Source: Geobacter sp. (lineage in GTDB: Bacteria > Myxococcota_A > UBA9160 > JADFDR01). Taken from it: a stretch of 40,711 nucleotides of DNA. The stretch's first letter is position 1, and each line of letters starts with the position of its first letter. The DNA lies in NCBI GenBank assembly GCA_018262735.1, contig JADFDR010000002.1, forward strand, positions 1-40,711, read 5' to 3'. The notes under the pieces are model-generated. The model searched no databases and was not told the DNA's origin. It saw only the letters and a list, made by a program, of their open reading frames with translations. Positions 9,295 to 36,702 of this stretch are shown in pieces. Both the position numbers and the translations under genes were made by a program.

Positions 9295-10572
9295 ATGGTC
9301 GAGCCAACTTGGGGGAAGATCTTGAGCAAGCAGAGCAACGAAGCACTCGCGGGCATCCGCGTCATCGAACTCGGGCAAATGATTTCGGCGCCGTATTGCG
9401 CGAAGCTTTTCGCCGACTTTGGTGCGGACGTCATCAAAGTCGAAGCCCCGGCAAGCACGGGGCTTCCCGGCGATCTCTCGCGCCATTGGGGGCCATTTCC
9501 GAGCGACGAGCCACACCTCGAAAAAAGCGGAACCTTTTTCTTTCTTAACACCAATAAGCGTAGTGTCACGCTCGATGTCGCGCAGGAGAAAGGCCGTGCG
9601 ATTTTGAAGAAACTGCTCGCGCAGGCCGATGTCTTGATCGAAAACTGCCATCCCGGGCAGATGCGCGAGTGGGGACTCGACTTTGCAGCGCTACAGAAAA
9701 TCAATCCACGTCTCGTGATGATCTCGATTACGCCCTTTGGTCAGACTGGACCGTACTGCGACTGGAAAGGTTACGACTTAAACGCCTATCACCTCTCCGG
9801 CGCAAGCCATCGCTATTGCGGACGCCCCGGCGAAGCACCGCTCGAACACGGGACCTTTGCTGCAGATTTCTTTGGTGCCATTTCCGCAGCGACCTGGGGA
9901 CTCGCAGCTGTGTATGGTCGAAGTCTCGTCGCGCAAAACGCGGAAGGCGGCGGACAACAGCTCGACGTCTCGTGTGCCGAAGCGATCGCCGCCGCGTTCG
10001 TCGGTGGACAAAACATCGGCGGCTATGCGCAAGACGGAAAATTCGAACATCGCACCGGCGTAGGAATGCCGCTTGGTGCGCCGGCCACGATCGTTCCCTG
10101 CAAGGATGGCTATGTGTGGATGCTCGCGCTCGAACCGGGCCAGTGGAACGGTCTTGCGAAAGTGATGGGCAATCCCGAGTGGATGCAGCTCGATCTCTTC
10201 CAAGACATGTATGCGCGCGCGCAAAACGCCGACGCGATCTATCCGATGTTGCAAGAATGGACGATGGAGCACTCGAAGCAAGAAATCATGGATTTGTGTC
10301 AGGCCAACGGATGCCCTGTGACGGCGGTCTACAACGTCGCCGAGGCGGCAGCCCAAGAACATCTCAAAGTGCGCGAGTATCTGGTCCATCTCGCACACCC
10401 TCATCTCGGCACGATTCCGACTCTCGGCGCGCCGTTCAAACTACCCAAGAGCCCGGGCGGTCCCAAGCGACCCGCACCGCTGCTTGGCGAACATAACCAA
10501 GAAGTGTATGGCGAAATGCTTAGCCAAGATGCCGCTCTTCTGACCACCTGGAAGCGCGACGGAATCATCTAA
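9295..10572 (+). CDS. family III (CaiB/BaiF) CoA-transferase, Asp-containing subunit (A1)
   Basis: LAGIRVIELGQMISAPYCAKLFADFGADVIKVE, and FGQTGPYCDWKGYDLNAY carrying the conserved family III Asp. Start is uncertain: ATG 9295, ATG 9262 or TTG 9322. The track start 9196 looks too long compared with the paralog. Confidence 0.85.
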   Translation: MVEPTWGKILSKQSNEALAGIRVIELGQMISAPYCAKLFADFGADVIKVEAPASTGLPGDLSRHWGPFPSDEPHLEKSGTFFFLNTNKRSVTLDVAQEKGRAILKKLLAQADVLIENCHPGQMREWGLDFAALQKINPRLVMISITPFGQTGPYCDWKGYDLNAYHLSGASHRYCGRPGEAPLEHGTFAADFFGAISAATWGLAAVYGRSLVAQNAEGGGQQLDVSCAEAIAAAFVGGQNIGGYAQDGKFEHRTGVGMPLGAPATIVPCKDGYVWMLALEPGQWNGLAKVMGNPEWMQLDLFQDMYARAQNADAIYPMLQEWTMEHSKQEIMDLCQANGCPVTAVYNVAEAAAQEHLKVREYLVHLAHPHLGTIPTLGAPFKLPKSPGGPKRPAPLLGEHNQEVYGEMLSQDAALLTTWKRDGII

Positions 10573-10599
10573 CGCATTTTTGAGTTATCGGAGATCGAC

Positions 10600-11835
10600 A
10601 TGGCCAACAAGCTGCCGCTACAAAAAATTCGAGTTGCGAACTTTGGTTGGGTTTGGGCCGGGCCCGTCGTCGGACAAACGCTCGGCTTCCTCGGCGCCGA
10701 GGTCTACAAGATCGAGTCGCGCGCGCGCATCGATCTCACCCGCAACTTGCCACCGTTTGCCGAGGGTGTGCGCGACCCGAACCGCAGCCTCTCGAATCAC
10801 GCGTGCTGGGCGGGCAACGGCAGCATCACGCTCAATCTCAAGAAAGACGAAGCCAAACAACTCGCGCTCGACTTCATCGCGAAGTGCGACGTCGTGATCG
10901 AAAACTTCGGCCCGGGTGTGATGAAACAACTTGGTTTCGGCTACGAAGAACTCTGCAAGGTGAAGCCCGACATCGTGATGTTCTCGATGCCGGCGGCGGG
11001 GTTGTACGGTCCGCTCAAAGACATTCGCACGTACGGGCTGAGTCTCACGAGCACGACCGGACTCGACAGTCTCACGGGTTATCTCGACGGTGCACCGATT
11101 CCCGTCGAAAACGCCTACTCGGATCCCTACAACGGAATTCTCGGCGCGTTTGCAATCGTGGCGGCGCTCCACTATCGCGATCGCAGCGGCGAAGGCCAGC
11201 ACATCGATTACTCGCAACAAGAAGCGATCATGCAGATGGTCGGGCCGGCGTACATGGATTATGTGCTCAACGGACGCGTCGCGGGGCCGATCGAAAATCG
11301 CCATCCGCGCGCTATGGCGTCACCGCACGGTGTATTCCCGTGCGCAGGCGACGATCGCTGGATCAGCATCGCCGTGCTCACCGACGAAGAATGGCAAGGC
11401 TTGCAGTGCGCCGTGAAGAAGGCAGCGGGAAGCGACGCAAGCTGGATCGATGCGCCGGAATTTGCGACGCACGAAGCGCGACTTGCGCATATTGCTTCGC
11501 TGCACGAAAAACTCGCCATGTGGACCAAGCAGTTTGGCGACACCGAACTCGCCGCGCGCTTGCAAGCTGCGGGTGTAGCCGCTGCGCCGGTTTTGAACGT
11601 CGCCGACTTGCTCAACAATCCGCACTACAAGGCGCGCAAGACGTTTCTCGAAGTGACACATCCGCTTGGCTTTGAAGAAACGATCTACGGCGCGTACGTG
11701 AAGATGAGCGAAAGCGAACCGGCGGTGCGTCCCGGGCCGTCGATGGGTCAAGACAACGAACACGTGTTCAAAAATCTGCTTGGGCTACCCGAGGCGCGCT
11801 ACGCAAAGCTCGTCGAAGAGCAGATCATTTACTGA
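10600..11835 (+). CDS. family III CoA-transferase-like subunit lacking the canonical Asp (B1)
   Basis: IRVANFGWVWAGPVVGQTLGFLGAEVYKIE. The loop aligned to the catalytic Asp reads GLYGPLKDIRTYGLSL, with Gly in place of Asp. GGAGA lies 5-6 nt upstream of ATG 10600, which is 27 nt after A1. Confidence 0.85.
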   Translation: MANKLPLQKIRVANFGWVWAGPVVGQTLGFLGAEVYKIESRARIDLTRNLPPFAEGVRDPNRSLSNHACWAGNGSITLNLKKDEAKQLALDFIAKCDVVIENFGPGVMKQLGFGYEELCKVKPDIVMFSMPAAGLYGPLKDIRTYGLSLTSTTGLDSLTGYLDGAPIPVENAYSDPYNGILGAFAIVAALHYRDRSGEGQHIDYSQQEAIMQMVGPAYMDYVLNGRVAGPIENRHPRAMASPHGVFPCAGDDRWISIAVLTDEEWQGLQCAVKKAAGSDASWIDAPEFATHEARLAHIASLHEKLAMWTKQFGDTELAARLQAAGVAAAPVLNVADLLNNPHYKARKTFLEVTHPLGFEETIYGAYVKMSESEPAVRPGPSMGQDNEHVFKNLLGLPEARYAKLVEEQIIY

Positions 11836-12173: not shown

Positions 12174-12668
12174 ATGAAGAAGAAAGAATCCGGCTCGATC
12201 GACATCGAAACCTTTCGCGCGACGAACATTGGCCAGCCGCTGATGGAAGTCGCGAAAGATTTTCAACGCCGCGCGCTCGCGAAGTTTTACGAGCGTGGCC
12301 ACGACGAGTTGCAACCGTCGCACCAAGCGGTGCTCGCCTACTTGCATGCTTCGGGCACACGGCTCACGGAACTCGCGGAACTCGCCGGAATGAGCAAGCA
12401 GGCCATGGGGCAGCTCGTCGATGAAATCGAGCGCTTGGGTTACGTCGAGCGCGTGCCCGACCCGAGCGACGGACGGGCCAAGATCGTACGCTTTACGGTG
12501 TCGGGCAAGAAGTTGATTCGCGACGGCACCAAGATCGCGAGCGAAATCCAAGAGCAATATACGGCGCTGATCGGGGTGAAACGCTTCGAGCAATTGCGCG
12601 AAATCCTCGACGAGCTGCGCAGCAAAGCCAAAATGCTGCCGATCGGCGATGAGGTTGGAGAGAAATAA
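12174..12668 (+). CDS. MarR-family transcriptional regulator
   Basis: Winged-helix segment LTELAELAGMSKQAMGQLVDEIERLGYVERVPDPSDGRAKIVRFT. Start set to ATG 12174; the track ORF begins at 12042. The stop overlaps the next gene as TAATG. Confidence 0.85.
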   Translation: MKKKESGSIDIETFRATNIGQPLMEVAKDFQRRALAKFYERGHDELQPSHQAVLAYLHASGTRLTELAELAGMSKQAMGQLVDEIERLGYVERVPDPSDGRAKIVRFTVSGKKLIRDGTKIASEIQEQYTALIGVKRFEQLREILDELRSKAKMLPIGDEVGEK

Positions 12669-13828
12669 TGTTTGCACTGCAGGGCTTGCGCATCCTCGAT
12701 CTTTCCCGGCACGCACCCGGGCCGTACTGCAGCATGTTGATGGCGGATCTTGGCGCCGACGTAATCGTGGTCGAGGCGCCTACGACGCATAAAAGCGTTG
12801 GTTCGGCGATGGGCATCAGCGATCGCGACATAGCGTTCAATCCCGTCGGACGCGGCAAGCGTTCGATCGCGCTCAATCTCAAAGATCCGGCCGCGCGCGA
12901 AGTCTGCTTGCAGCTTGCAAAAAACGCCGATGTCGTGCTCGAAGGCTTTCGACCTGGCGTCGCGACACGACTCGGTGTCGACTACGACGCCTTGCGCGCG
13001 ATGAAACCCGATTTGATCTATTGCTCGATCAGCGGCTACGGCCAAACCGGCCCCTACGCGCCGCTCGTCGGACACGATCTCAACTACATCAGCATCGGCG
13101 GTGCGCTCGGCATGATCGGAACGCCCGGCGGTGCGCCGACGATTCCGATGAACGCGATCGCAGATTTTGCGGGCGGCGGTCTCTTCGCAGCCTTCGCGGT
13201 GCTCGCGGCCGTGGTGCATCACAAGAACACCGGCGAAGGTCAATACATCGACATGGCAATGAGCGACGGCGTGCTGTCGCTCATCGGGCTGCTCGCCGGC
13301 GAAACGCTCGCCAAAGGCCGCCCCCCACGACCGGGCCAGCATTACTTGAATGGTGCCTTGCCTTGCTATCACGTCTACGAAACTTCCGACGGAAAATGGC
13401 TCAGCGTCGGCTGCATGGAGCCTTGGTTTTGGGCGCGTCTTTGCAAGCAACTCGGTTGCGAAGAGTTCAGCAACGAACAATTCAACACCGAAAAGTTTCC
13501 CGAGATTTTTGCGTTCTTGCGCGCGCGCTTCCAAGAAAAAACGCGCGACGAATGGTTTGCACAACTCAAGGACGATGAAATCTGCGCGACGCCCGTCTAC
13601 GAACTCGACGAAGCGCTGCGCGACCCGCATCTGATCGCACGCAAGATGGTCGTCGAAGTCGAAGATGCGAAGTACGGAAAAATTCCGCAGGTCGGCATCG
13701 CACCGAAATTCTCGAAGACGCCCGGCAAAGTGCGAGGCACCGCTCCGCGCGTCGGTGAACACAGCGAGGAGATCTTGCGCGAGCTGGGTTACTCGGCCGA
13801 CGCGATCGCAAAACTCACGGGAAAGTAA
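12668..13828 (+). CDS. family III CoA-transferase / alpha-methylacyl-CoA racemase-like protein
   Basis: LRILDLSRHAPGPYCSMLMADLGADVIVVE, and ISGYGQTGPYAPLVGHDLNYISIGG (the GHD-NY motif typical of racemase-type members). 386 aa. Confidence 0.85.
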   Translation: MFALQGLRILDLSRHAPGPYCSMLMADLGADVIVVEAPTTHKSVGSAMGISDRDIAFNPVGRGKRSIALNLKDPAAREVCLQLAKNADVVLEGFRPGVATRLGVDYDALRAMKPDLIYCSISGYGQTGPYAPLVGHDLNYISIGGALGMIGTPGGAPTIPMNAIADFAGGGLFAAFAVLAAVVHHKNTGEGQYIDMAMSDGVLSLIGLLAGETLAKGRPPRPGQHYLNGALPCYHVYETSDGKWLSVGCMEPWFWARLCKQLGCEEFSNEQFNTEKFPEIFAFLRARFQEKTRDEWFAQLKDDEICATPVYELDEALRDPHLIARKMVVEVEDAKYGKIPQVGIAPKFSKTPGKVRGTAPRVGEHSEEILRELGYSADAIAKLTGK

Positions 13829-14035: not shown

Positions 14036-15883
14036 TTATCCGCGAACCACCGGCAGAATCAAGCAGGATGGATGCGCGGCGTCGTGATGCACGTTTTGCT
14101 TGGCCTTGCGACGATCGCTCGCGCTCGCGCGCGCGATCTCGACTTTTGCATTGGGATTGCAATCGAACTTCGGAAAATTGCTGCTGCTCACTTCCAGACG
14201 CAAACGATGGCCGGGCAAAAAGACATACGCCGTATCGAGAAGCGAAATCGAAAGCGGCACGATCTCGCCCGGCGTGAGCCAAGCTTCGCGATCCATTCCG
14301 TTGCGATAGCGCGCACGCAAAATGCCTTCCGCCACCGGCGCGCAGTAGCCGTTCGCATCCACGTCGACGAGCTTCGCCGTAAAATCCGTGTCCGGTGCAT
14401 CGCTCGAAATCCAAAGCTCAAGCGAAACCGGGCCGGCGATGCGCAGTGCATCCTGCAAAACTTCGCTGCTATACACCAAAACGTCGTCGCGCATTTCGAC
14501 TTCGCTCTGATCGAGCACACCAGGCGAACCGAAGATCGGCGCCAGGCTTCGGCAACCGCGCGTCGGCACCGGGTCGCTCGGATCGTACACATAACGATCC
14601 ACCGTCTCGTCCGTCGGAGCACGGCGCGAAAGCTCGCCATTGCCCAGGCGCGTGTTGGCGCGACCTTGGCTGTGCAAGAAGAAATTTTCTTTGGCGTGCG
14701 ACGGCGGCCAGCTCGAAGTTTCGCGCCATTGATTTTCGCCCATCGAGAAGTAGCGCACGCGCGCCACGGCTTGCTGCACCGGTTGCGAGGCGTTTTCAGA
14801 TTTGAGCGCTTCGCCGCGCAAATACGGCTCGAAAAATTCCAGCACCAATTCACTCACACCCGCCGGCCCCGCCACGGCCTCCGGCCCGAACTCGCGCTCA
14901 CCTGCGGCCGTCGGACGAATGCTCATGTAGGTGATGTGATCCCACGGACCAAACACCAATCGGTGTGTATCGCGCACTTCGGAGCGTGGATGCTTCTTCA
15001 GACTTTCGTTCAAATCCAAGTGGCCTTGCAAAAAGCCGTCGTACCAACCTGCGATTTGCAACACGGGCACTTGGATCTCTGTGCAACGCGCCGCCACATC
15101 CACACTGCGCCAGAACTCATCGTACTTGGGATGATCGAGCCACTCGCGCCAAAACGGCGCGTGCTCAGCGTGCTCCGCGTCAGCACTGCAAGTCGCCGCG
15201 CTACAAAGTGCAGTGTTATCGCGAAGCGGAATCTCTCGCACGGCTTTCCAGGGATCTTTCGCCGCTGCCATCAACTTGCCAAACGCTTGCAATCGCTCGG
15301 CCTCCGGAAGCCGCAACGCACGATCCCAAGCCAAATTGAGCGCCCACCAAAAATTGAAACCGAGTTCGAATGCGCCGCCGCTATACGCCCAGCCCGCGTG
15401 ATAGTTCGCGCCCGTCATGTAGGCAACGCAAGCCTTGAGATGGGGAGGCGCTGCGACGGCAGCTTGCAATGCAGTGACACCGTTGTAGGACGATCCGTAG
15501 ATGCCGACGTTGCCATTGCTCCACGGCTGCCTGGCCGCCCACTCGATGGTGTCGTAACCGTCGTTCCCTTCGCAGGCAAAGGGCTGCCATTCTCCCTCGG
15601 AAGCGAAACGTCCTCGTGTATCCTGCACGAGCACGACGTAACCGCGCTCGGCGGCAAGCAGCGGATTGAGCATCAAGCCGCCGACGACCCAGGCATCACT
15701 TTTGTTGTAGGGAGTGCGGTGCACGAGTACGGGATGCTGCGTTTTCGCCTGCGTGGCACCCCGCGCAGAATCCCATGCTTCCTTCGCGCAAGAATCGGCG
15801 GGTCGGTAGATGTCCGTCGCAAGCTTGACGCCGTCCCGCATCGAGACCATCACATCGCGCTCAACGGTAATCGCTCGGCTCAT
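14036..15883 (-). CDS. CocE/NonD family hydrolase (S15 X-Pro dipeptidyl-peptidase fold)
   Basis: MRDGVKLATDIYRP, LVHRTPYNK and the nucleophile elbow GIYGSSYNG. 615 aa. GGAGG lies 5 nt upstream of ATG 15883. Confidence 0.88.
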   Translation of the reverse strand: MSRAITVERDVMVSMRDGVKLATDIYRPADSCAKEAWDSARGATQAKTQHPVLVHRTPYNKSDAWVVGGLMLNPLLAAERGYVVLVQDTRGRFASEGEWQPFACEGNDGYDTIEWAARQPWSNGNVGIYGSSYNGVTALQAAVAAPPHLKACVAYMTGANYHAGWAYSGGAFELGFNFWWALNLAWDRALRLPEAERLQAFGKLMAAAKDPWKAVREIPLRDNTALCSAATCSADAEHAEHAPFWREWLDHPKYDEFWRSVDVAARCTEIQVPVLQIAGWYDGFLQGHLDLNESLKKHPRSEVRDTHRLVFGPWDHITYMSIRPTAAGEREFGPEAVAGPAGVSELVLEFFEPYLRGEALKSENASQPVQQAVARVRYFSMGENQWRETSSWPPSHAKENFFLHSQGRANTRLGNGELSRRAPTDETVDRYVYDPSDPVPTRGCRSLAPIFGSPGVLDQSEVEMRDDVLVYSSEVLQDALRIAGPVSLELWISSDAPDTDFTAKLVDVDANGYCAPVAEGILRARYRNGMDREAWLTPGEIVPLSISLLDTAYVFLPGHRLRLEVSSSNFPKFDCNPNAKVEIARASASDRRKAKQNVHHDAAHPSCLILPVVRG

Positions 15884-16012: not shown

Positions 16013-17113
16013 TTATTCGTCTTCGCCGCAGATCTGATCGAAGACTTCGTAAGCCTCTTCGACCATGTCGAGCACGATCTGACGCGCGGGTTTCATTGAC
16101 GTCACGAAATCCACACCTTGGCCAGCGGCTTCGGTCATGAAATCCGGCATGTTCCAGTCGATCGCCGATTGCTTCACATCTGCGAAGAGCAGCAATTGAT
16201 ACGGAGCCGGAGCCGGTCGCGGCGCATCCGGGCGCTCCCACTCTTCATGCCACTTACACTTTAATGTGCGCATCGTGAAGCCCGAGATGCAGTTCGAATA
16301 CGCCGTGTCGGTGGCCTTCGCCGCAAGCAATTTCTCTTTGATGATCATGTCGACGTCGGACTCGCGCGACGGAAGCCAAACCGTTCCCGTCCACACACCT
16401 TGCGCGCCGAGCGCGATCGCGCCGGCCAAGTGACGCCCGGTGGTGACACCGCCGCCCGCGATCACCGGCGTATCGCCCGCAATCGCCACGACTTGCGGCA
16501 CGATCGAAAACGTACCGATCGGACCGGTGTGACCCGCGGCATCGTTGCCTTGCGCGATCACCGCATCGACGCCCGCTTCAATTTCGCGTTGCGCTTGGCG
16601 CGGTTTTCCGACGAGACCCCAAACCTTCATGCCTCGTGCGTGCGCGGCGTCGAGCACGAACGCCGGATTTCCAAGACCCGAGGCAAGCACGGGAACATTG
16701 TTCTCGAGTACGACTTCGAGTTGGCGGCGCGGCGTTTCTTTGTTTACCCAACCGAGGTCATAGAGTTCGGGAGTTTTCTTCGGCGCGGGAATGTTGTGGC
16801 GCTTCTTCATCTCTTCCACAAATTTGCGTTGGGCTTCGGGAATCTGCGCCTTCAAATCGTCGATCGAACCGACGGCCGGCACCGAGGCCGGAAAAACCAA
16901 GTCGATGCCGAACGGCTTCGAACCCACCTTCTCGCGCAACCACTTGATGTCCGCCTCGATTTCTTCGGGCGAATGTTGCGTTTCACCGAGCACTGCAAAA
17001 CCACCGGCGTTGATCACCGCAGCAGCGACGTCTTTGCAATGCGTAAAAGCAATGATGGGATATTCGATACCGAGCTCTTGCACGAGCCGTGTCTTCAGCG
17101 GGTCTTTGGCCAC
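16013..17113 (-). CDS. nitronate monooxygenase / 2-nitropropane dioxygenase (FabK-like) family flavoenzyme
   Basis: LGIEYPIIAFTHCKD and GVDAVIAQGNDAAGHTGPIGTFSIVPQVV. Start set to GTG 17113 with AAGGAG 6 nt upstream; the track start is 17203. Confidence 0.85.
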   Translation of the reverse strand: MAKDPLKTRLVQELGIEYPIIAFTHCKDVAAAVINAGGFAVLGETQHSPEEIEADIKWLREKVGSKPFGIDLVFPASVPAVGSIDDLKAQIPEAQRKFVEEMKKRHNIPAPKKTPELYDLGWVNKETPRRQLEVVLENNVPVLASGLGNPAFVLDAAHARGMKVWGLVGKPRQAQREIEAGVDAVIAQGNDAAGHTGPIGTFSIVPQVVAIAGDTPVIAGGGVTTGRHLAGAIALGAQGVWTGTVWLPSRESDVDMIIKEKLLAAKATDTAYSNCISGFTMRTLKCKWHEEWERPDAPRPAPAPYQLLLFADVKQSAIDWNMPDFMTEAAGQGVDFVTSMKPARQIVLDMVEEAYEVFDQICGEDE

Positions 17114-17275
17114 GTTCTTCTCCTTCGGAAATTTGCAATTTGCGGATTGGATTGGGTCGCGAAGCGACGCCCCGCGACTCGATGTCCGCGCGAACTTTGC
17201 CATCGGCGCGCCGGGGCGGCAAGCGTTGGCAGGTCAAAACGCGGGCGAGCGAATCATCGCATCGAATCCAAATCG

Positions 17276-17290
17276 GTCAAGGGGCCTGAC
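17276..17290. promoter_or_regulatory. operator-like motif GTCAAG-GGG-CCTGAC
   Basis: Same arms as the two sites at 20167 and 20204. Lies in the divergent region between the NMO-family gene and the second CoA-transferase pair. Confidence 0.35.
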
Positions 17291-17627
17291 TATTTTGCGC
17301 AACTGAGCTATGGACTCGAAACGGCGCGCCACGCAAGCCGCACCGAAGGCAAGTCGCCTGCGTTTTTGCTCACGAAGGGTGAGAATGCGCGGTGGAAATC
17401 ATGGTGAAAAGCATGATGAAAAGGGATGGCAAGTGCGAAGAGCCCTTGTGCGACTTGAAGTGCATGAATCCAAGGCACGAATTTGCGCCACGCAAACAAA
17501 GAGCGAGTCGCCAGCAAACCGGAACGCGCAGGCCCTGGCGCACGAAAACCGAAAGGCTTCCGAGGAAGAGCGTCAAAACGGGGCGGCACAAAACATCCAT
17601 TCGCGCATGTCGCGAACGAGGAGTTTC

Positions 17628-18944
17628 ATGGACGGCGCACTCACCGGAATCCGCGTAATCGAACTTGGCGAAGGCATTTCCGCTGCCTTTGCCGCGAAAC
17701 TTTTTGCGGACTACGACGCGGAAGTCATCAAAGTCGAATTGCCGCGCTCGCCTTGCGCAAGCGATCCGACGGAAACACACGATGCGGGCAACGTCGCGCA
17801 ACCCGCCGACGTTTCGCGACTGGGCGACGTCACGCGAAGCTGGGGACCGTTTCCAGGCGACGTGCCCGATCCCGAAAAAAGCGGCGCCTTCTTTTTCTTG
17901 AACACGAACAAGCGCGGTCTCGCGCTCGACTTCACTTGCGACAAAGGGCGCGAACTTTTGCTTCGCCTCATCGCCGAAGCCGACGTGCTCATTGAAAACT
18001 TTTCGCCACGACAAATGCGCGAATGGAAGCTCGACTGGGCGACGCTCGAAAAAATCAATCCAAAACTCGTGATGATTTCCATTACGCCGTTCGGTCAGAC
18101 CGGCCCGTACGCCGACTGGAAAGGCTACGACCTGAATGCGTTTCATCTTTCGGCGACGGGCACGCGCTACTGCGGTGTGCCCGACCAAGCGCCGCTCGAG
18201 CACGGCACCTTTTCCGCCGAATTTTTCGGGGCCTACTGTGCCGTAACCTGGGGACTGGCGGCGGTGATCGGCCGCGACTTGGTGGCGCAAGATGACGCAG
18301 AGAATGAAAAAAGTGGGGGTGGCCAACACATCGACGTGTCATGCGCCGAAACCGTGGCCGCACTCTTCGTCGGAGCGCAAAACATCGGGGGCTATGCCCA
18401 GGACGGAAAATCAGGAACACGAACGGGTGTCGGAATGCCGCTCGCCGCGCCTGCCACGATCATTCCCTGCCAAGACGGCTACGTGTGGATGATGGCGCTT
18501 GAAACCGGGCAGTGGCACGGGCTCGTGCGCGCGATGGGCAATCCCGATTGGGCGCAGCTCGATCTCTTCGACGATATGTTCGAACGCGCTCAAAACTCCG
18601 ACATGATTTATGCCTTCCTCTACGAGTGGGCCGCGGCGCACACCAAGCAGGAGATCATGGATTTGTGTCAGGCGAACGGTTGCCCAACCACGGCGGTGTT
18701 TACGGTCGCCGAGGCCGGCGAACACCCGCACCTGCGCGAGCGCAACTACCTCCGCGAGATCGCCCACGCCGCACTCGGCACCGTGCGCACCTTCGGCGCG
18801 CCAGTGCATCTCACGGCGTGCCCCGGCGGAGCGACGGCACCGGCGCCGCTCTTCGGCGAACACAACGCTGAAATTTTGGGTGTGCGGCTCGGCTTGTCGG
18901 TTGCAGAACAGTCTACACTTCGAAGCGTAGGAGTGATCGCATGA
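17628..18944 (+). CDS. family III CoA-transferase, Asp-containing subunit (A2, paralog of A1)
   Basis: LTGIRVIELGEGISAAFAAKLFADYDAEVIKVE and FGQTGPYADWKGYDLNAF. Start set to ATG 17628 (GAGGAG 4 nt upstream); the track ORF from 17310 adds a non-coding-looking extension. By eye roughly two-thirds identical to A1. Confidence 0.87.
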   Translation: MDGALTGIRVIELGEGISAAFAAKLFADYDAEVIKVELPRSPCASDPTETHDAGNVAQPADVSRLGDVTRSWGPFPGDVPDPEKSGAFFFLNTNKRGLALDFTCDKGRELLLRLIAEADVLIENFSPRQMREWKLDWATLEKINPKLVMISITPFGQTGPYADWKGYDLNAFHLSATGTRYCGVPDQAPLEHGTFSAEFFGAYCAVTWGLAAVIGRDLVAQDDAENEKSGGGQHIDVSCAETVAALFVGAQNIGGYAQDGKSGTRTGVGMPLAAPATIIPCQDGYVWMMALETGQWHGLVRAMGNPDWAQLDLFDDMFERAQNSDMIYAFLYEWAAAHTKQEIMDLCQANGCPTTAVFTVAEAGEHPHLRERNYLREIAHAALGTVRTFGAPVHLTACPGGATAPAPLFGEHNAEILGVRLGLSVAEQSTLRSVGVIA

Positions 18945-20161
18945 GCAAAGCTCTTCCCTTGCAAGGCCTGCGCGTGGCGAATTTCGGTTGGGGCTGGCTC
19001 GGACCGGTCGCCGGACAAACGCTCGGCTTTCTCGGCGCCGAGGTCTACAAGATCGAGTCGCACGCGCGCGTCGACATCAATCGCACCTTGCCGCCGTTTG
19101 CCGAAGGCAAGCGTGACTTCGATCGAAGTTTGCAAAACCACGCCGGCTGGGCCGGCAACGGCAGCGTGACGATCAATCTCAAAAAAACGGCCGGCCAAGC
19201 ACTCGCACGCGAACTCGTCGCGAAGTGCGACGTGGTGCTCGAAAACTTCGGCCCCGGCGTGATGGACAAGCTCGGCCTTGGCTACTCGGAATTGTGTAAG
19301 GTGCGGCCGGATGTGATCTTGGTTTCGATGCCCGCTGCAGGACTCACGGGGCCACTGCGCCACGTGCGCACCTACGGCATGAGTCTGAGCAGCATCACGG
19401 GGCTCGATAGTCTCACCGGCTATGTCGATGGCCCACCGATACCGATGGAAAACGCATACGCCGATCCGCTCGGTGGCATCATCGGTGCGTTCGCGGCGCT
19501 GCTCGCATTGCGCTTTCGCAAGCGAACCGGCAAAGGTCAACTCGTCGATCTCTCGCAACAAGAAGGCATCTTGCAAATGGTCGGCCCGGCCTGGATGGAT
19601 TACGCCTTCAACGGTCGCGTAGCCAAGCCGATCGGCAATCGCCATCCGCTCTCCGTCGGTGCGCCACACGGCGTGTTCCCGTGCGTGGGCGACGATCGCT
19701 GGATCAGCATCGCAGTGCTCTGCGAAGCGGAATGGCATGGTTTGGTGGCGGCAATGAAGTCGCCCGCGTGGGCCACGGCGGTGGAATTTTCGTCGTCACA
19801 AAAACGTGTCGCAAACATCGAAGCGCTTCATCAAAAAATCGCAGAGTGGACGCGCGGGTTCGACAACCAAGAATTGGCAGCGTTACTCCAGACGCACGGT
19901 GTCGCCGCCGCGCCGGTGCTTGCAGTGGCCGACTTGCTCTCCAATCCGCAACTCCAAGCGCGCAACACGTTCATGGAAGTCACACATCCACTCGGCTTTC
20001 GCGAAACGATCTACGGCGCTTATGTGAAGACGAGCCGCACCGAGCCGCGCATCACGCCCGGCCCGGCGATGGGCTGCGACAACGAGCACGTCTTTCGTTC
20101 GCTTCTGGGCCGTTCGGAAGTGGATTACCAACAGCTCGTGCACGACGAAGTGATCTTTTGA
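18941..20161 (+). CDS. family III CoA-transferase-like subunit lacking the canonical Asp (B2, paralog of B1)
   Basis: LRVANFGWGWLGPVAGQTLGFLGAEVYKIE. The loop reads GLTGPLRHVRTYGMSL, with no Asp. ATGA overlap with A2, and AGGAG 7 nt upstream. Confidence 0.87.
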   Translation: MSKALPLQGLRVANFGWGWLGPVAGQTLGFLGAEVYKIESHARVDINRTLPPFAEGKRDFDRSLQNHAGWAGNGSVTINLKKTAGQALARELVAKCDVVLENFGPGVMDKLGLGYSELCKVRPDVILVSMPAAGLTGPLRHVRTYGMSLSSITGLDSLTGYVDGPPIPMENAYADPLGGIIGAFAALLALRFRKRTGKGQLVDLSQQEGILQMVGPAWMDYAFNGRVAKPIGNRHPLSVGAPHGVFPCVGDDRWISIAVLCEAEWHGLVAAMKSPAWATAVEFSSSQKRVANIEALHQKIAEWTRGFDNQELAALLQTHGVAAAPVLAVADLLSNPQLQARNTFMEVTHPLGFRETIYGAYVKTSRTEPRITPGPAMGCDNEHVFRSLLGRSEVDYQQLVHDEVIF

Positions 20162-20164
20162 AGA

Positions 20165-20220
20165 TTGTCAGGTTTCTTGACGAACATGGAACCCCTCGGT
20201 AAGGTCAAGTTTCCTGACAA
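20165..20220 (+). promoter_or_regulatory. paired palindromic sites (or interrupted hairpin) overlapping a promoter-like TTGACG-17-TAAGGT
   Basis: GTCAGGTTTCTTGAC (20167-20181) and GTCAAGTTTCCTGAC (20204-20218) lie in inverted orientation. TTGACG (20177-20182), a 17-nt spacer and TAAGGT (20200-20205) sit between and over them. The element starts 4 nt after the B2 stop. Confidence 0.4.
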
Positions 20221-20345
20221 AACGGCTCTGCCGCAGCAAGCGACACCAAAAAGAGACACTTGAAGAACTTGTGCAGGCAAGCTGGCAACCTTGCTTTGTG
20301 CGACGCACAGAGAACAAACGCGCGCGCCGGCGACACGACTCGCGC

Positions 20346-20389
20346 GGGCTGCGAAAGCGCGGGTTGCAAAGAAAGGGCTGCGAAAGCGC
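20346..20389 (+). repeat. two perfect 15-bp direct repeats GGGCTGCGAAAGCGC, 29-nt period
   Basis: 20346-20360 and 20375-20389, read directly. They lie 50-95 nt upstream of the thiolase-like gene start. Confidence 0.8.
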
Positions 20390-20439
20390 ACGGCTTTTCT
20401 ACAGCAACCAAGGCACGCAAGCAGACGGAGGAGATGGAA

Positions 20440-21609
20440 ATGGGTTCTTTCAAAAATCAAGCCTGTATCGTCGGTATCGGGCAGACGAAATACTCGCGCG
20501 GTCCCGGGACCGGCAAAACGGATTTGAGCCTGCAGCTCGAAGCCTCGATCGCGGCGCTCGACGATGCGGGCCTCCAACGAAGCGACATCGACGGTGTGCT
20601 GCCCTTCGTTTGTCTCGGCATCGCCGAAGAATTTGCGGTGCATCTCGGCATCGAAGATCTCCGTTACCAATCCACTTCCCATCTGGGCGGCGCAGCGCCC
20701 GGAGCTTCGCTCGCCAACGCCGCAATGGCCGTGACGGCGGGACTCGCAGACACCATTCTGATTCCGGGTGGTTGGTACGGCTTTTCGGGACGACGCGTGC
20801 GCGAAGTCGTCGTGGCCGACACCACCGTCATGTCGGGCGGCCCGACGGCGCGCGATTTTTATTTTCCATTCGGTCTGACCGCACCGCCGCAATGGTTTTC
20901 GTTTATCGCTCGCCGACACATGCATGAGTATGGTACGAAATCGGAACAACTCGGCGCGATCGCGGTCGCGCAGCGCAAGCACGCGCAACTCAACCCTCAC
21001 GCACTGACGCGCGGCAAGGAACTCACACTCGAGAAGTATCTCTCATCGGCGGTGATCTCCGATCCGTATCGCCTTTTCGATTGCTCACTCGAAGCCGACG
21101 GTGCAGCAGCCTTCATCGTGACCACCGCCGAGCGCGCGCGCGATCTCAAGCAAAAGCCGATCTATGTGATGAGCGTGACGCAAGGTCAACCCTATCCCGC
21201 AGACGATCTCGTAACCCGCGACGATGTGTTCCAACTCGGACTCACCTCGGCGGCGCCGCGCGCGTTTGCGATGGCCGGCGTCACGCACGACGACATCGAC
21301 TTCGCGCAAATCTACGATCCGTTCACGTTCCAAGTTTTGCAGCAGATCGAAGAGCTGGGTTTCTGCAAACGCGGCGAAGGTGGCGCATTCGTCGAGGGTG
21401 GCCGCATCGAACTCGGTGGCAAACTGCCCGTGAACACGCACGGCGGACTTCTCTCCGAAGCGCATGTGCTCGGCATGAACCACTTCGTGGAAGCCGTGCG
21501 GCAACTTCGCGGCGAGGCCGGTGAGCGCCAAGTGCAAGACGCCGAGATCGGGCTCGTGACCGGCTTTGGCGATTTCGGAGATGGCAGCATCGCCATCTTG
21601 CGTCGTTAA
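20440..21609 (+). CDS. thiolase-superfamily (SCP2-type) protein lacking the nucleophilic Cys (T1)
   Basis: ACIVGIGQTKYSRG, LFDCSLEADGAAA and NTHGGLLSEAHVLGMNH. The position of the thiolase xxACxSG nucleophile reads HLGGAAPGASL. Start set to ATG 20440 (GGAGGAG 6 nt upstream). Confidence 0.85.
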   Translation: MGSFKNQACIVGIGQTKYSRGPGTGKTDLSLQLEASIAALDDAGLQRSDIDGVLPFVCLGIAEEFAVHLGIEDLRYQSTSHLGGAAPGASLANAAMAVTAGLADTILIPGGWYGFSGRRVREVVVADTTVMSGGPTARDFYFPFGLTAPPQWFSFIARRHMHEYGTKSEQLGAIAVAQRKHAQLNPHALTRGKELTLEKYLSSAVISDPYRLFDCSLEADGAAAFIVTTAERARDLKQKPIYVMSVTQGQPYPADDLVTRDDVFQLGLTSAAPRAFAMAGVTHDDIDFAQIYDPFTFQVLQQIEELGFCKRGEGGAFVEGGRIELGGKLPVNTHGGLLSEAHVLGMNHFVEAVRQLRGEAGERQVQDAEIGLVTGFGDFGDGSIAILRR

Positions 21610-21636
21610 CACTTTTTTGAGTAGAACGAGGGAATC

Positions 21637-22059
21637 ATGAGCGAACAATCCTATGCGAAACCATTGCCGCTGATGCGCGGCTCCACGAAAGAATTTTACG
21701 ATCACTGCAAAAACGGAGAGCTGCGCTTTCAGCGCTGCACGGATTGCGGCAAATGGCGGCACGTGCCGCGCGAGATGTGTGCGAAGTGCGGTTCGTGGAA
21801 CTGGGAATGGGCGCGCTCGTCGGGGCGCGGCGAAGTGTTCACCTGGACCGTCGTGCAGCGCGCGATGCATCCTGCATTCCCGGGTGACGTGCCCTATGCG
21901 CCGGCCATCATCCAAATGCAGGAAGGTGTGCGACTCGTGAGCTGGGTCGCCGATTGTCCGCCGGAAGAACTCAAAATGGGCATGCCGGTGGAAGTGATCT
22001 TCGAGCGTGTTACCGACGAAGTCACGCTGCCGAAGTTCAAGCGCGCGGCAAAACGCTGA
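21637..22059 (+). CDS. DUF35 Zn-ribbon / OB-fold protein (D1)
   Basis: 140 aa with a four-Cys ribbon (RCTDCGKWRHVPREMCAKCGS) followed by an OB-like tail. Lies 27 nt after T1. Confidence 0.88.
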   Translation: MSEQSYAKPLPLMRGSTKEFYDHCKNGELRFQRCTDCGKWRHVPREMCAKCGSWNWEWARSSGRGEVFTWTVVQRAMHPAFPGDVPYAPAIIQMQEGVRLVSWVADCPPEELKMGMPVEVIFERVTDEVTLPKFKRAAKR

Positions 22060-22149: not shown

Positions 22150-22908
22150 ATGGCCATTCAAGAATTTTTGTACGAAAAGCGCGATCACATCGCGATCATG
22201 ACTTTCAATCGCCCGGAGCAAAGCAATTGTTTCACGGCAGAGATGATCGACGAACTCTATGCTTGCTTCGATGACTTCAACGCCGATCCCGATCTTTGGG
22301 TGGCGATCCTCGCCGGCAACGGCAAGAACTGGTGTGCGGGCGGCGACCTCGAATCACTGATTCCGGCGATCAACTCCGGCCGCTACAAAATCAACGAAGA
22401 TCCGACGAAGCGCGTCTACAGCGATATTTTCAAACCAATCATCACCGCCGTGAATGGCTTTGCGACGCTCGAACTGGTGCTCGGCGCCGATCTCTGCGTC
22501 GCCGGCGAAGGTGCGCGCTTTGCACTCGGCGAAGTGCGCTGGGGCATGATTCCGGCGGGCGGTTCGCACATTCGCCTGCCGCGCGCCGTGCCGTGGGCAA
22601 TCGCAATGGAACTCTTGCTCACCGGCGGTTCGATCGACGCCAAGCGCGCCTACGACGTCGGCCTCATAAACCGATTGGTGTCACCCGATCAGGTGTTCCC
22701 GGAAGCGCTGAAGATCGCCGAGGCGATTTGCAAGAATGGGCCGCTCGCGGTGCAAACCGCCAAAGAAATCGCAGTGCGCGCCTGGGAACACGAGCGTGGC
22801 TTCGTGCTCGAAAACGCGCTCTTTCAACGCGTGAGCCGCTCCGAAGACGCCGCCGAAGGGCCACGCGCCTACCAAGAAAAACGTAAGCCTGTGTTCAAAG
22901 GACGCTAA
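22150..22908 (+). CDS. enoyl-CoA hydratase/isomerase family protein (E1), divergent active-site loop
   Basis: HIAIMTFNRPEQSNCF, WCAGGDL and GEVRWGMIPAGGSHIRLPR. GGGGAG lies 6 nt upstream of ATG 22150. The GG oxyanion loop is shortened (NGFATLEL). Confidence 0.87.
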   Translation: MAIQEFLYEKRDHIAIMTFNRPEQSNCFTAEMIDELYACFDDFNADPDLWVAILAGNGKNWCAGGDLESLIPAINSGRYKINEDPTKRVYSDIFKPIITAVNGFATLELVLGADLCVAGEGARFALGEVRWGMIPAGGSHIRLPRAVPWAIAMELLLTGGSIDAKRAYDVGLINRLVSPDQVFPEALKIAEAICKNGPLAVQTAKEIAVRAWEHERGFVLENALFQRVSRSEDAAEGPRAYQEKRKPVFKGR

Positions 22909-35367: not shown

Positions 35368-36141
35368 TTAGCGACCTTTGAAAGCAGGCGGGCGGCGCTC
35401 TGCGAACGCCGCCGGACCTTCCTTCGCATCCTCCGACGAAAACACGCGTGCGGCAAGTGCTTTTTCAAGCACGAAGCCCGGCTCGTTCAACATCGAGCGC
35501 ACTGCAATCTCTTTGGCCGTGCGCACCGCGAGCGGGCCATTCTTGCAAATTTTCTCGGCCATCTGCATGGCTTCGTTGAATACCTGATCCGCCGGCACCA
35601 CCTTGTTCACGAGTCCGACGTCATAAGCGCGCTGCGCGCTAATCGGTTCACCGGTGAGCAAAAGCTCCATCGCCACGGCCCACGGAATTTGCCGCGGTAC
35701 ACGAATATGTGACCCCCCTGCCGGAATCAACCCCCAGCGCACTTCGCCAAGACTAAACATCACGTGCTCGCCTGCGATGCGAATATCCGTGCCTGCAAGC
35801 ATCTCCATGCCACCCGCAATGCAGGCTCCGTTGACGGCAGCGATGATCGGCTTGAACACGTCCGAGAACTGGCGTTTCGTGTGATCGGGATAGCCGAGAT
35901 CGTCACCGGCGGTGAGCAGCGGAATCGCTTCTTTGAGATCCATGCCCGCCGAAAACGCTTTGTCGCCGGTGCCGGTCAAAATCGCCACCCAGAGATCGGG
36001 ATCCGCGTTGAAATCGGCAAACGCCGCATCGAGGCCAAGCAACATCGCTTTGGTAAGCGAATTCATCGCCTTCGGACGATCAATGCGCATCACGGCGATA
36101 TGACCTTTTTTCTCGTAAACGATCTCGGACGGAATCTCCAC
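35368..36141 (-). CDS. enoyl-CoA hydratase/isomerase family protein (E2, paralog of E1)
   Basis: HIAVMRIDRPKAMNSL, FSAGMDL, AAVNGACIAGGMEMLAGTDIRIAG and GEVRWGLIPAGGSHIRVPR. The track start 36186 is a TTG. GTG 36141 with GGAGA 6 nt upstream is preferred. Confidence 0.85.
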   Translation of the reverse strand: MEIPSEIVYEKKGHIAVMRIDRPKAMNSLTKAMLLGLDAAFADFNADPDLWVAILTGTGDKAFSAGMDLKEAIPLLTAGDDLGYPDHTKRQFSDVFKPIIAAVNGACIAGGMEMLAGTDIRIAGEHVMFSLGEVRWGLIPAGGSHIRVPRQIPWAVAMELLLTGEPISAQRAYDVGLVNKVVPADQVFNEAMQMAEKICKNGPLAVRTAKEIAVRSMLNEPGFVLEKALAARVFSSEDAKEGPAAFAERRPPAFKGR

Positions 36142-36196
36142 GATACATCTCCACTTTTTGGTGTAATTGATCTTGCGTTCGTTCAACCCACCGCGT

Positions 36197-36622
36197 TCAG
36201 CGAACGCAGCGTCGAAATTTCGGCAAGCTGATTTCCGGCGTCACTTCGTCGAAAACCACTTCCACCGGCATCCCAATTTTCAATTCTTCGGGAGTGCAAC
36301 CTTGCACTTCGCTGAGCAAACGCACGCCTTCTTCGAGTTCGACGATCACGGGTGCAAGCGGTACGGAATCGCGAAACGCGGGATGCAGCGCGCGGTTCAC
36401 GACGGTCCATGTGAATACTTCGCCGCGCCCGCTCGACTTCGCCCATTCCCATTCCCAGGAACCACACTCGGCACACATTTCACGCGGCATATGCCGCCAC
36501 GCGCCACAGGATTTACAACGCTGAAAACGCAATTCACCTTGTTTGCAGAACGCGTAGAAATCTTTGCTGAAGCCTTCGAGTACCGGAAGCGGCTTCGTGT
36601 ATCCGGTTGCAGATTCGCTCAT
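36197..36622 (-). CDS. DUF35 Zn-ribbon / OB-fold protein (D2, paralog of D1)
   Basis: RCKSCGAWRHMPREMCAECGS, then GRGEVFTWTVVNRALHPAF. 141 aa. Confidence 0.88.
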   Translation of the reverse strand: MSESATGYTKPLPVLEGFSKDFYAFCKQGELRFQRCKSCGAWRHMPREMCAECGSWEWEWAKSSGRGEVFTWTVVNRALHPAFRDSVPLAPVIVELEEGVRLLSEVQGCTPEELKIGMPVEVVFDEVTPEISLPKFRRCVR

Positions 36623-36702
36623 TTCGTTCTCGCTTTCTTCAATCGTTCATTCTCGATTGGGGGATTGCACTCGATCTTTTGCTTGCGTTGGAAAAGGTTT
36701 CT

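Follow-up and report, generated by a model that had tools for sequence, protein, structure and literature searches.

Two paralogous pairs of genes for family III CoA-transferases lie in the 40,711-nt stretch of DNA analysed here (hereafter the window), which comes from a wetland metagenome and whose nearest MAG is labelled Geobacter. They raise the questions of which subunit of the second pair, A2B2, carries the catalytic residue, whether an insert in A2 matters for its function, and which acid the pair activates. We hold with moderate confidence that A2B2 is a BbsEF-type CoA-transferase of two unlike subunits in which B2 bears the nucleophile, that it likely activates an acid of the seco-steroid type, and that the expanded loop of A2 is non-catalytic. 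The genes concerned are as follows:

17628..18944, + strand: A2, partner subunit of a family III CoA-transferase (438 aa; PF02515, E 1.1e-85; 62% identity to A1)
18941..20161, + strand: B2, probable catalytic subunit (406 aa; PF02515, E 8.6e-89; 65% identity to B1)
9295..11835, + strand: A1 and B1, the paralogous pair (PF02515)

All four proteins matched PF02515 (E 1e-85 to 1e-101), and the matches of A2 and B2 were full-length, scoring 288 and 299 bits against a gathering cut-off of 23.3. An earlier note, made from the DNA letters, had judged the two pairs to be roughly two-thirds identical, which agrees with the values measured here (A2 to A1, 62%, with gaps of 20 and 5 residues; B2 to B1, 65%), and A2 and B2 share just 26% identity. 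The ATGA overlap described there between the stop of A2 and the start of B2 is likewise present, at the 18941-18944 boundary of the gene calls. An RBS-like GAGGAG lies 6 nt 5' of the A2 ATG; the extra 106 upstream codons of the open reading frame at 17310 were rejected as part of A2, because homologues begin at MDGAL-type N-termini and the RBS precedes 17628. The best PDB sequence match of B2 was chain B of BbsEF (E 2.4e-55), and the best PDB fold match of the A2 AlphaFold2 model (pTM 0.82) was also a BbsEF chain, 9fn0_D (E 8e-29, TM 0.76-0.82). The top 50 PDB fold matches of this model were all family III chains (TM 0.63-0.83), and both of its inter-domain linkers were of low confidence, as expected of a monomer model. 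No NCBIfam equivalog scored above its cut-off for A2, B2, A1, B1 or C3 (a third family III protein of the window), the best being succinate-glutarate CoA-transferase with 202-245 bits against 750.

The same fold is shared by alpha-methylacyl-CoA racemase (MCR), whose catalytic His is His126. The G-Y-D-L-N motif of the A subunits aligns with the racemase G-H-D-x-N-Y, but the catalytic His is Tyr in A and Tyr-Gly in B (G-Y-D in A2, T-Y-G in B2), and among the neighbours only C3 has G-H-D-L-N-Y. The PDB matches of A2 and B2 to MCR are far weaker (1e-19 to 1e-28).

As to catalysis, A2 had been called the Asp-bearing subunit, and B2 was said to lack the Asp, on the basis of a residue in the G-Y-D-L-N motif. 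The family III nucleophile sits about 30 residues beyond that Asp, at the following codons:

18219..18221, + strand: codon for Glu198 of A2, at the family III nucleophile column (aligned to YfdW Asp169 and to Asp178 of BbsEF chain B)
19463..19465, + strand: B2 codon of the predicted nucleophile, Asp175 (same alignment column as the catalytic Asp of YfdW and as D178 in chain B of 9fn0)

At this nucleophile column (Asp169 of YfdW/Frc), Asp was found in 71/71 B homologues, being Asp175 in both B2 and B1. The A family contained 64 Asp and 9 Glu there, with Asp in A1 and Glu198 in A2, and chain A of BbsEF has Tyr. Changes between Asp and Glu occurred about five times independently on the A-family tree and never in B. 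At the G-Y-D-L-N column, all 73 A-family members have Asp (Asp168 in A2), as against Gly in 70/70 B members (Gly146 in B2). The nucleophile Asp typical of family III is therefore found in B2 (Asp175) and not in A2 (Glu198). Since the Asp of G-Y-D is not the family III nucleophile, the two labels are reversed where catalysis is concerned: A2, with Glu198 at the decisive column, is not Asp-bearing in the catalytic sense. B2 does have Gly at the G-Y-D column, as described, but it carries an Asp at the actual nucleophile column.

This arrangement resembles that of BbsEF, a succinyl-CoA:(R)-benzylsuccinate CoA-transferase (PDB 9fn0, 9fol and 9fun), which also belongs to family III and consists of unlike subunits encoded by adjacent genes. 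The title of PDB entry 9fol names a 'D178-CoA adduct'. In a multiple alignment that included both chains (A and B) of 9fn0, A2B2 showed the same split as BbsEF, with Gly and the nucleophile Asp (D178 in BbsEF) on the B-like chain and the Asp of G-x-D, without Asp at the nucleophile column, on the A-like chain. This shared division of the motifs makes B2 the homologue of the adduct-bearing subunit. The A family departs from BbsEF at the nucleophile column, which is occupied by Asp (in most homologues) or Glu instead of the Tyr of BbsEF chain A. The homodimeric enzymes Frc/YfdW, YfdE, CaiB and SUGCT share the fold, the interlocked dimer and an aligned nucleophile column, and their aspartyl anhydride/aspartyl-CoA thioester mechanism is documented by PDB 2vjm and 2vjo; they differ in having identical active sites, whereas in A2B2 the motifs are split over two diverged subunits.

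If A2 were nevertheless the catalytic, Asp-bearing half, B2 would be a non-catalytic or scaffolding partner that had lost its catalytic Asp, as might be read from its Gly at a column where A2 and most homodimeric relatives are acidic (G-Y-D in 4ed9 and 10uh, Y-E-N in YfdW). We consider this highly improbable, given that the nucleophile column is invariant Asp in B but Asp or Glu in A and Glu in A2, that the CoA adduct of BbsEF is on D178 of the very chain with Gly in the G-Y-D column, and that the canonical G-P and GN-x-HP motifs are better kept in B than in A. Catalysis by both halves is another reading, in which B2 Asp175 and A2 Glu198 would form two different sites, perhaps for two acids or donors per complex. 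A carboxylate occupies the nucleophile column in 73/73 A-family members, and in 113/114 of a larger set, the GD-x-(T/A)R motif of the CoA loop is near-invariant in A, and purifying selection is strong overall. Since most A homologues combine Asp at the nucleophile column with this near-invariant motif, catalysis at the A site may occur in the family, and Glu198 of A2 might still work as a nucleophile. Against this reading, which we think unlikely, stand the roughly five swaps between Asp and Glu in A with none in B, the Tyr of the A-type chain of BbsEF, and the 24-residue expansion that the CoA loop of A2 has tolerated. The Asp169-to-Glu variant of Frc, moreover, is reportedly nearly inactive; the PDB has an entry for a mutant of this kind (1vgr). 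With the nucleophile Asp on B2 and Glu198 on A2, the heterodimer would probably have one canonical active site, as BbsEF does. The corrected motif assignment bears on both mutagenesis and annotation, as the subunit seemingly without 'the Asp' is the one that carries the predicted nucleophile.

The two subunits are tightly linked in genomes. Among 63 evaluable loci, 57 have B directly 3' of A and 3 more have the two fused (60/63 in all), and in the window, too, two unlike subunits are encoded by adjacent, co-directional genes, as in the BbsEF type. The natural fusions, found in MAGs of Binatia and in Gemmatimonadales-labelled and Spirochaetaceae-labelled MAGs, keep the A domain in front of the B domain, with a linker of 15-35 residues between them, unlike the separate genes of the window. 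An AlphaFold2 model of one fusion (L006, 816 aa, from a 5-sequence alignment; mean pLDDT 57.9, pTM 0.62) was too poor to be read for domain arrangement. The linkage in 60/63 loci, the heteromeric nature of the nearest solved relative and the BbsEF-like motif split lend strong support to the earlier suggestion of an obligate heteromer, which A2 and B2 would accordingly be predicted to form.

Around the pair, the window contains two thiolase-like/DUF35/hydratase triads and several other genes that recur at homologous loci:

20440..21609, + strand: T1, thiolase-fold protein (Ltp-type), first triad gene after B2 (Thiolase_C_1, E 3.6e-48; 69.5% identity to T2; syntenic with B2-type pairs)
21637..22059, + strand: D1, DUF35 protein with zinc ribbon and OB fold (OB_ChsH2_C and zf-ChsH2 matches)
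22150..22908, + strand: E1, crotonase-type enoyl-CoA hydratase (ECH_1, E 3.1e-50; 59.7% identity to ECHc)
35368..37863, - strand: the paralogous triad, with ECHc at 35368-36186, D2 at 36197-36622 and T2 at 36703-37863 (identities as given for T1 and E1)
16013..17203, - strand: NMO/FabK-like FMN oxidoreductase, divergent from A2 (PF03060; adjoins the A gene in many loci)
14036..15883, - strand: CocE/NonD (S15) alpha/beta hydrolase (TIGR00976, E 3e-135; recurs by B2-type modules in L001-L005 and L059)
12174..13828, + strand: MarR regulator and C3 (syntenic in L001-L004 and other loci)

C3 is racemase-like, combining its G-H-D-L-N-Y motif with an Asp at the nucleophile column. The statement that B2 leads directly into the triad was loose, as the homology-supported start of T1 at 20440 leaves a gap of 278 nt. 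Within it there is a modest hairpin (z = -1.8) that lacks a U-tail, and a terminator/promoter scan of 17150-20500 gave counts not above those of shuffled sequences, with no terminator-like site on the + strand after B2.

Phylogeny separates the two pairs. The B2-type clade (SH-aLRT 99) and the A2-type clade (SH-aLRT 91) together hold nearly all loci with the T1/D1/E1 triad, and pairs of the A1B1 type sit in other contexts. At least 8 genomes, a Sterolibacterium MAG among them, contain both pair types, and homologous modules were also found in MAGs of Binatia, Myxococcota, Acidimicrobiia and Dehalococcoidia. Judged by these trees and gene orders, A2B2 and A1B1 are two old and widespread orthogroups, each with its own thiolase-like/DUF35/hydratase set. 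The separate clades and contexts, and the genomes with both types, make the two substrate specificities proposed before plausible, if only indirectly. In the tree, A grouped with BbsEF chain A (SH-aLRT 96), and the join of B with chain B was not resolved. With about 28% identity, and with BbsEF on long branches outside both clades, the pairs are not orthologues of BbsE and BbsF; no bbs or bss genes occur in the window, the A2B2 operon lacks bss and bbsCDG genes, and scores against the NCBIfam BbsA/BbsB models were far below the cut-offs. BbsEF nonetheless resembles A2B2 in occurring with a thiolase-fold/DUF35 pair and a crotonase, and on sequence grounds A2B2 is a further member of the known BbsEF-type heteromeric kind, within a widespread orthogroup. 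The earlier note had named, as the outcome that would count against its proposal, clustering inside a characterised orthologous group of like operon content. Half of this applies: the pairs do belong to a large orthologous group whose operon content is the same, but we found no biochemical characterisation of this A/B group in the literature or NCBIfam, and a literature search for a family III CoA-transferase assigned to anaerobic steroid degradation returned nothing usable.

The insert of about 20 residues reported after the strand VIKVE of A2 was confirmed as a 20-residue gap against A1. It belongs to the first of two expanded loops, and part of it is repetitive:

17739..17822, + strand: expanded loop of A2, residues 38-65 (LPRSPCASDPTETHDAGNVAQPADVSRL), between the strand VIKVE and the GD-x-TR motif
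18276..18320, + strand: second expanded loop of A2, residues 217-231 (DLVAQDDAENEKSGG), recognised by loop-length comparison among homologues
17787..17840, + strand: three degenerate 18-nt units encoding GNVAQP / ADVSRL / GDVTRS, recognised by unit comparison

The loop between E37 and G66 has 28 residues in A2, 16 in the closest A2 orthologue, 8 in A1 and 3-4 in 110/114 homologues. The second loop has 15 residues in A2, 10 in A1 and two orthologues, and 4-5 in 110/114 homologues, and a 'VAQ' insert within it is common to both paralogues of this lineage only. An assembly artefact was ruled out, as contigs from two wetland metagenome runs, with depths of about 17x and 11x, contain the insert without indels. 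The 18-nt units are pairwise identical at 11-13 of 18 nt, and their summed identity of 36, against a gene-wide mean of 15.4, was reached at 2 of 421 in-frame positions; Tandem Repeats Finder reported no repeat in 17700-17900. Units 1 and 2 make up the 12 residues absent from the closest A2 orthologue. By this unit comparison, half of the insert comes from degenerate triplication of an 18-nt unit encoding GDVTRS.

Residues 44-62 of A2 were modelled by AlphaFold2 with pLDDT below 50 and without secondary structure, and the insert lies at the nucleotide end of the CoA pocket of A2 itself, adjoining the GD-x-TR motif. This position, together with the enlargement of loops at the same two sites in both A paralogues of this lineage, could point to a functional loop, for instance one with a docking or regulatory role in coupling A2B2 to T1-D1-E1 or in gating the CoA pocket. 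Such a role seems quite improbable, however, for an insert missing from 110/114 homologues, rich in Pro, Ser, Thr, Asp and Ala, predicted with such low confidence and made up to one half of a degenerate slippage repeat. Even against the 87%-identical A2 orthologue the loop is poorly kept, with about 10/16 residues identical and a 12-residue indel. The 20-25 residues are probably a lineage-specific, fast-evolving, disordered and recently expanded surface loop, probably without a catalytic role, and the insert itself is of little consequence.

What A2B2 acts on is suggested by the far end of the window, which also contains XdhC and MocA-like genes:

38025-39017, - strand: Amidohydro_2 gene, putatively of the SRAH family, adjoining the atcA-like gene
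39109 to window end (40711), - strand: atcA-like molybdoenzyme large-subunit gene (MoCoBD), with the atcA reverse-primer site at 40261 (1 mismatch)

An atcABC-type molybdoenzyme of the xanthine-oxidase family, as found in 2,3-seco clusters beside the gene for the Amidohydro_2 ring A hydrolase SRAH (characterised form WP_154715975.1), is thus represented by the gene at 39109-40711, assigned by domain, gene order and primer site. The Amidohydro_2 family is highly conserved, with identities of 69-94%, and no NCBIfam model matched the protein of the window. In a close relative (L084), genes for the FAD, Fer2 and MoCoBD subunits, Amidohydro_2, thiolase-like and DUF35 proteins stand in a row, and both atcA primer sites are present, 1172 bp apart and beside the genes for the FAD and Fer2 subunits. 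Sites that fit the published atcA primers with 0 mismatches, again at a spacing of 1172 bp, occur in Thauera terpenica 58Eu and Azoarcus sp. Aa7, in both of which A1B1-type orthologues lie upstream of atcA; in T. terpenica 58Eu, a co-directional atcCBA string containing the A1B1-type pair could be mapped. Given the atcA-like and SRAH-type genes of the window and the A1B1-type pair in this string, the two pairs are candidates for the CoA activation of ring-opened steroid acids. Another locus (L085) has a different family III pair beside its atc/SRAH-type cluster, which was ruled out as a member of the A/B family by its identity of just 24-30%, so that adjacency alone does not single out the enzyme for DSAO.

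According to Jacoby et al. 2025 (PMC11780191), neither the CoA ligase or transferase that acts, after ring A opening, on the seco-acid DSAO nor the hydratase and the aldolase have been found so far, and candidates lie in the SRAH/1-TDH clusters. [quoted passage not shown] The window contains exactly such sets, in two paralogous copies, with the difference that the atcCBA-linked pair in T. terpenica is of the A1B1 type. [quoted passage not shown] AOG1 or Geomobilimonas luticola, both of which have SRAH-like genes (Jacoby et al. 2025, PMC11780191). This doubt favours a non-steroid substrate, some other alicyclic or terpenoid enone degraded via atc-like hydration, beta-diketone hydrolysis, CoA transfer and retro-aldol cleavage, as do the wetland source with its Geobacter-labelled nearest MAG, the lack of visible side-chain or KstD genes in the window, and the modules in MAGs of Binatia, Myxococcota, Acidimicrobiia and Dehalococcoidia, none of them known steroid degraders. 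The same gene families in the same order are nevertheless found in the proven anaerobic steroid degraders T. terpenica 58Eu and Azoarcus Aa7 and in the genus Sterolibacterium, and both the site and the spacing of the atcA primers are conserved, which leaves a non-steroid substrate with a rather low probability.

Following the chemistry of the family, Asp175 of B2 would attack the acyl-CoA that serves as donor, giving first a mixed anhydride and next an Asp-CoA thioester, from which the acceptor carboxylate would take the CoA. A2 would serve as the interlocked partner, with the invariant Asp168 that B2 is missing and Glu198 at the nucleophile position. Most likely, A2B2 would turn a ring-opened (seco) steroid or similar alicyclic acid, without ATP, into the corresponding CoA thioester. 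This would be hydrated by E1, after which retro-aldol cleavage by T1-D1 would release acetyl-CoA. A1B1 with T2-D2-ECHc could perform the same sequence on a different intermediate.

About ring B opening in oxygen-free steroid degradation nothing is known (Jacoby et al. 2025, PMC11780191; 2021 and 2026 reviews). Our results raise the tentative and, as we judge, still doubtful possibility that the two five-gene modules (A1B1 with T2-D2-ECHc, and A2B2-T1-D1-E1) act consecutively on the steroid nucleus, one on the ring A seco-acid DSAO and the other on the ring B-opened acid between the tricyclic diketone STA and HIP. If true, this would name the missing enzymes of ring B degradation without oxygen, and the route would reach beyond beta- and gammaproteobacteria to a Geobacter-labelled MAG and to Myxococcota, Acidimicrobiia and Binatia MAGs. 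A2B2 and A1B1, as conserved orthogroups travelling with atcABC and SRAH-type genes, are concrete and clonable candidates for such functions.

The overlapping genes A2 and B2 and their paralogous pair in the window, A1 and B1, all encode family III CoA-transferases with a full-length PF02515 match (E 1e-85 to 1e-101).

Genes of the two family III CoA-transferase pairs
9295-10572, + strand: A1, full-length family III CoA-transferase (PF02515)
10600-11835, + strand: B1, full-length family III CoA-transferase (PF02515)
17628-18944, + strand: A2, 438 aa
18941-20161, + strand: B2, 406 aa

A2 is 62% identical to A1, with one gap of 20 and one of 5 residues, and B2 is 65% identical to B1, while A2 and B2 share only 26% identity. 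The earlier note's measurements of the A2/A1 and B2/B1 identities, of the 20-residue gap and of the ATGA common to the A2 stop and the B2 start thus hold. The A2 frame is open for 106 codons upstream of 17628 (ORF 17310-18944), yet 17628 is the likely start, because homologues have MDGAL-type N-termini and a GAGGAG lies 6 nt ahead of this ATG. The upstream stretch (17310-17627, + strand), open in the A2 frame, is basic, of low complexity and absent from homologues.

The Asp of the G-Y-D-L-N motif (Asp168 in A2, replaced by Gly146 in B2) had been taken as catalytic in the earlier note; the observation itself is real, but the central label of A2 as the Asp-bearing subunit was mistaken, as alignments to the homodimeric family III enzyme YfdW and to BbsEF, the succinyl-CoA:(R)-benzylsuccinate CoA-transferase, place the nucleophile elsewhere, and Asp175 of B2 is the predicted nucleophile. 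The catalytic Asp169 of YfdW lies in A-L-G-D-S, with which A-Y-A-D-P of B2 aligns at Asp175, and the G-Y-D column aligns with Y-E-N of YfdW. Chain B of BbsEF (PDB 9fn0/9fol) has G-Y-G at the G-Y-D column and T-N-Y-T-D178 at the nucleophile column, and the title of entry 9fol names a 'D178-CoA adduct'; chain A has G-S-D and Tyr at these two columns.

Residues at the two columns, in sequences from 83 loci
G-Y-D column: A family, Asp in 73/73; B family, Gly in 70/70
Nucleophile column: A family, Asp in 64 and Glu in 9; B family, Asp in 71/71

By these column alignments, then, B2 corresponds by homology to the BbsEF subunit on which the covalent CoA intermediate forms, with A2 as its partner. The nucleophile column of the A family changed between Asp and Glu about five times independently on the tree, and a larger set of 114 A-type proteins had Asp in 99, Glu in 14 and Ala in one. 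A2 and its close orthologues carry Glu (Glu198 in A2) at this column, and in the A2 lineage the A site may work poorly or not at all. For the A family, a second working site is possible, since most A homologues keep the Asp, and their GD-x-(T/A)R motif hardly varies.

The reading of the pair as a heteromer is well supported by gene arrangement. Among 72 recovered A genes, the B gene began between -4 and 160 nt past the A stop in 57, and in three A and B formed a single fused reading frame; nine of the remaining 12 lay at a contig edge, and three had B farther off or missing. The fusions are in the order A-then-B, with a linker of 15-35 residues, and keep both motif patterns. These natural fusions of 806-816 aa (L006 7995-10445, L026 7992-10412 and L010 939-3359, in MAGs labelled Binatia, Spirochaetaceae and Gemmatimonadales) have the linker in place of the last ~20 residues of A. 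A tree built from every A and B sequence plus both BbsEF chains had the A clade adjoining chain A (SH-aLRT 96) and the B clade beside chain B, but the latter join was poorly supported and the branches were long.

The 20 extra residues noted in A2 after the VIKVE strand are a real DNA feature, given the contigs of two wetland metagenome runs that span the region (~17x and ~11x, no indels).

Length of the first loop, from Glu37 (end of the VIKVE strand) to Gly66 (start of GD-x-TR), across 114 homologues
110 of 114 homologues: 3-4 residues
A1 and its orthologue: 8 residues
Closest A2 orthologue (83-87% overall identity): 16 residues
A2: 28 residues

The 12 A2 residues missing from the closest orthologue, together with the motif that follows, read GNVAQP / ADVSRL / GDVTRS, and the three 18-nt units behind them match pairwise at 11-13 of 18 nt. 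Their summed identity of 36, against a gene-wide mean of 15.4, was reached at only 2 of 421 in-frame positions, although Tandem Repeats Finder called no array for this triplication in the A2 loop region; we take the units to be a triplication that arose long ago by replication slippage. In the AlphaFold2 model of A2 (114 sequences, pTM 0.82), residues 44-62 had a pLDDT below 50 and no secondary structure. Going by Frc structures, we take the loop to lie at the junction between the Rossmann-type domain and the nucleotide end of CoA, far from the nucleophile. The expansion is confined to one lineage, changes fast and is predicted to be disordered, which together with its composition indicates a tolerated surface expansion, a minor and probably neutral feature. 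A second loop (A2 residues 217-231) has 15 residues in A2, 10 in A1 and two orthologues, and 5 as a rule. Here a five-residue 'VAQxx' insert after GR(D/S)L (18276-18320 in A2, and the matching place in A1) was found in A1, A2 and sister-MAG orthologues and in no other homologue; A1 and A2 otherwise fall into different clades, and the common insert suggests local gene conversion between the paralogues.

T1, D1 and E1 are the thiolase-fold, DUF35 and crotonase genes after B2. Almost every locus where close homologues of these three follow or face the pair falls in the A2-type clade (18 sequences, SH-aLRT 91) and the B2-type clade (22 sequences, SH-aLRT 99). The window holds a paralogous triad on the other strand.

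Genes of the second triad
35368-36186, - strand: ECHc, crotonase, 59.7% identical to E1
36197-36622, - strand: D2, DUF35 gene
36703-37863, - strand: T2, thiolase-fold gene, 69.5% identical to T1

Thus, a five-gene module is duplicated in the window, the compared A, B, T and E pairs being 60-70% identical, with one copy contiguous (17628-22908) and the other split between 9-12 kb (9295-11835) and 35-38 kb (35368-37863). Among the 80 best loci, no fewer than eight genomes hold both B1-type and B2-type pairs, one of them a Sterolibacterium MAG. The duplication is ancient, with both copies retained, which fits different substrates, so that the two specificities proposed in the earlier note are plausible on the basis of two old clades and the retention of both pairs. 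Several genes recur beside the B2-type module: those for an NMO/FabK-like flavoenzyme, for a CocE/NonD hydrolase, and for a MarR regulator together with a racemase-like third family III protein, C3. In the window, the MarR gene abuts that of C3 (12174-13828, + strand), which has a racemase-type G-H-D-L-N-Y and an Asp at the nucleophile column, and this gene pair accompanies the B2-type module in many loci.

The far end of the window resembles clusters for anaerobic steroid degradation.

Putative steroid-type genes at the window end
38025-39017, - strand: Amidohydro_2 gene, putative member of the ring A hydrolase (SRAH) family
39109 to window end (40711), - strand: large subunit of a xanthine-oxidase-family molybdoenzyme, atcA-like

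XdhC and MocA-like maturation genes lie at ~30-32 kb, and the closest relative, L084 (5913-12688), has the complete row of FAD subunit, 2Fe-2S subunit, 808-aa Mo subunit, Amidohydro_2, thiolase-like and DUF35 genes. Degenerate primers specific for atcA have been published for anaerobic androgen degraders (PMC5554518). They match the loci of Thauera terpenica 58Eu and Azoarcus sp. Aa7, known 2,3-seco-pathway organisms, with 0 mismatches and 1172-bp spacing; L084 has both sites 1172 bp apart, and the window has the reverse-primer site at 40261 with one mismatch. In T. terpenica 58Eu (L044 3712-17012), one strand carries a family III protein, a MaoC-like pair, an acyl-CoA dehydrogenase, DUF2889, A and B, followed by luciferase-like, crotonase, SnoaL (SnoaL_4), AtcC-like, AtcB-like and AtcA-like genes. 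In loci of Thauera, Azoarcus, Myxococcota and Acidimicrobiia, the pair linked to atcCBA and an SRAH-like gene is of the A1B1 type. Rows of atcA-like and Amidohydro_2 genes like that of the window were seen in Myxococcota, Acidimicrobiia, Binatia and Dehalococcoidia MAGs, the nearest MAG being labelled Geobacter; the literature suggests that the 2,3-seco pathway is confined to beta- and gammaproteobacteria. Carriers of the A/B pair include many lineages without known steroid degradation. A Deltaproteobacteria MAG (L085 2490-4918) has another family III pair beside atc-like and SRAH-like genes, with only 24-30% identity to A, B or C3, so that CoA-transferase pairs of more than one kind are linked to such clusters. 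A crotonase at 34296-35345 (- strand) is of the BadI/MenB type and looks like 2-ketocyclohexanecarboxyl-CoA hydrolase, not like an ordinary hydratase; copies at 77-80% identity lie in L035, L055 and L085. It could open a ring by hydrolysing a cyclic beta-keto-acyl-CoA.

In the ring A route, the seco-acid DSAO, which can be prepared with SRAH from androsta-1,3,17-trione, is converted to DSA-CoA; dehydrogenation, hydrolytic loss of acetate and hydration follow, and an aldol cleavage then yields acetyl-CoA and a tricyclic diketone (Jacoby et al. 2025, PMC11780191). The same study left the CoA ligase/transferase, dehydrogenase, hydrolase, hydratase and aldolase unassigned, with candidates in SRAH/1-TDH clusters, and stated that ring B degradation is unknown; a 2026 review added no enzyme assignment to these gaps. 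Judged from sequence, the A/B pairs and triads fit the vacant roles as candidates. As the link to atcCBA and an SRAH-like gene is that of the A1B1 type, the role of A2B2 is less certain; its substrate could be a ring-opened acid further along the route or belong to a second substrate class. By its predicted features, A2B2 is an uncharacterised two-subunit CoA-transferase of the BbsEF kind, situated in a gene cluster of the 2,3-seco type.
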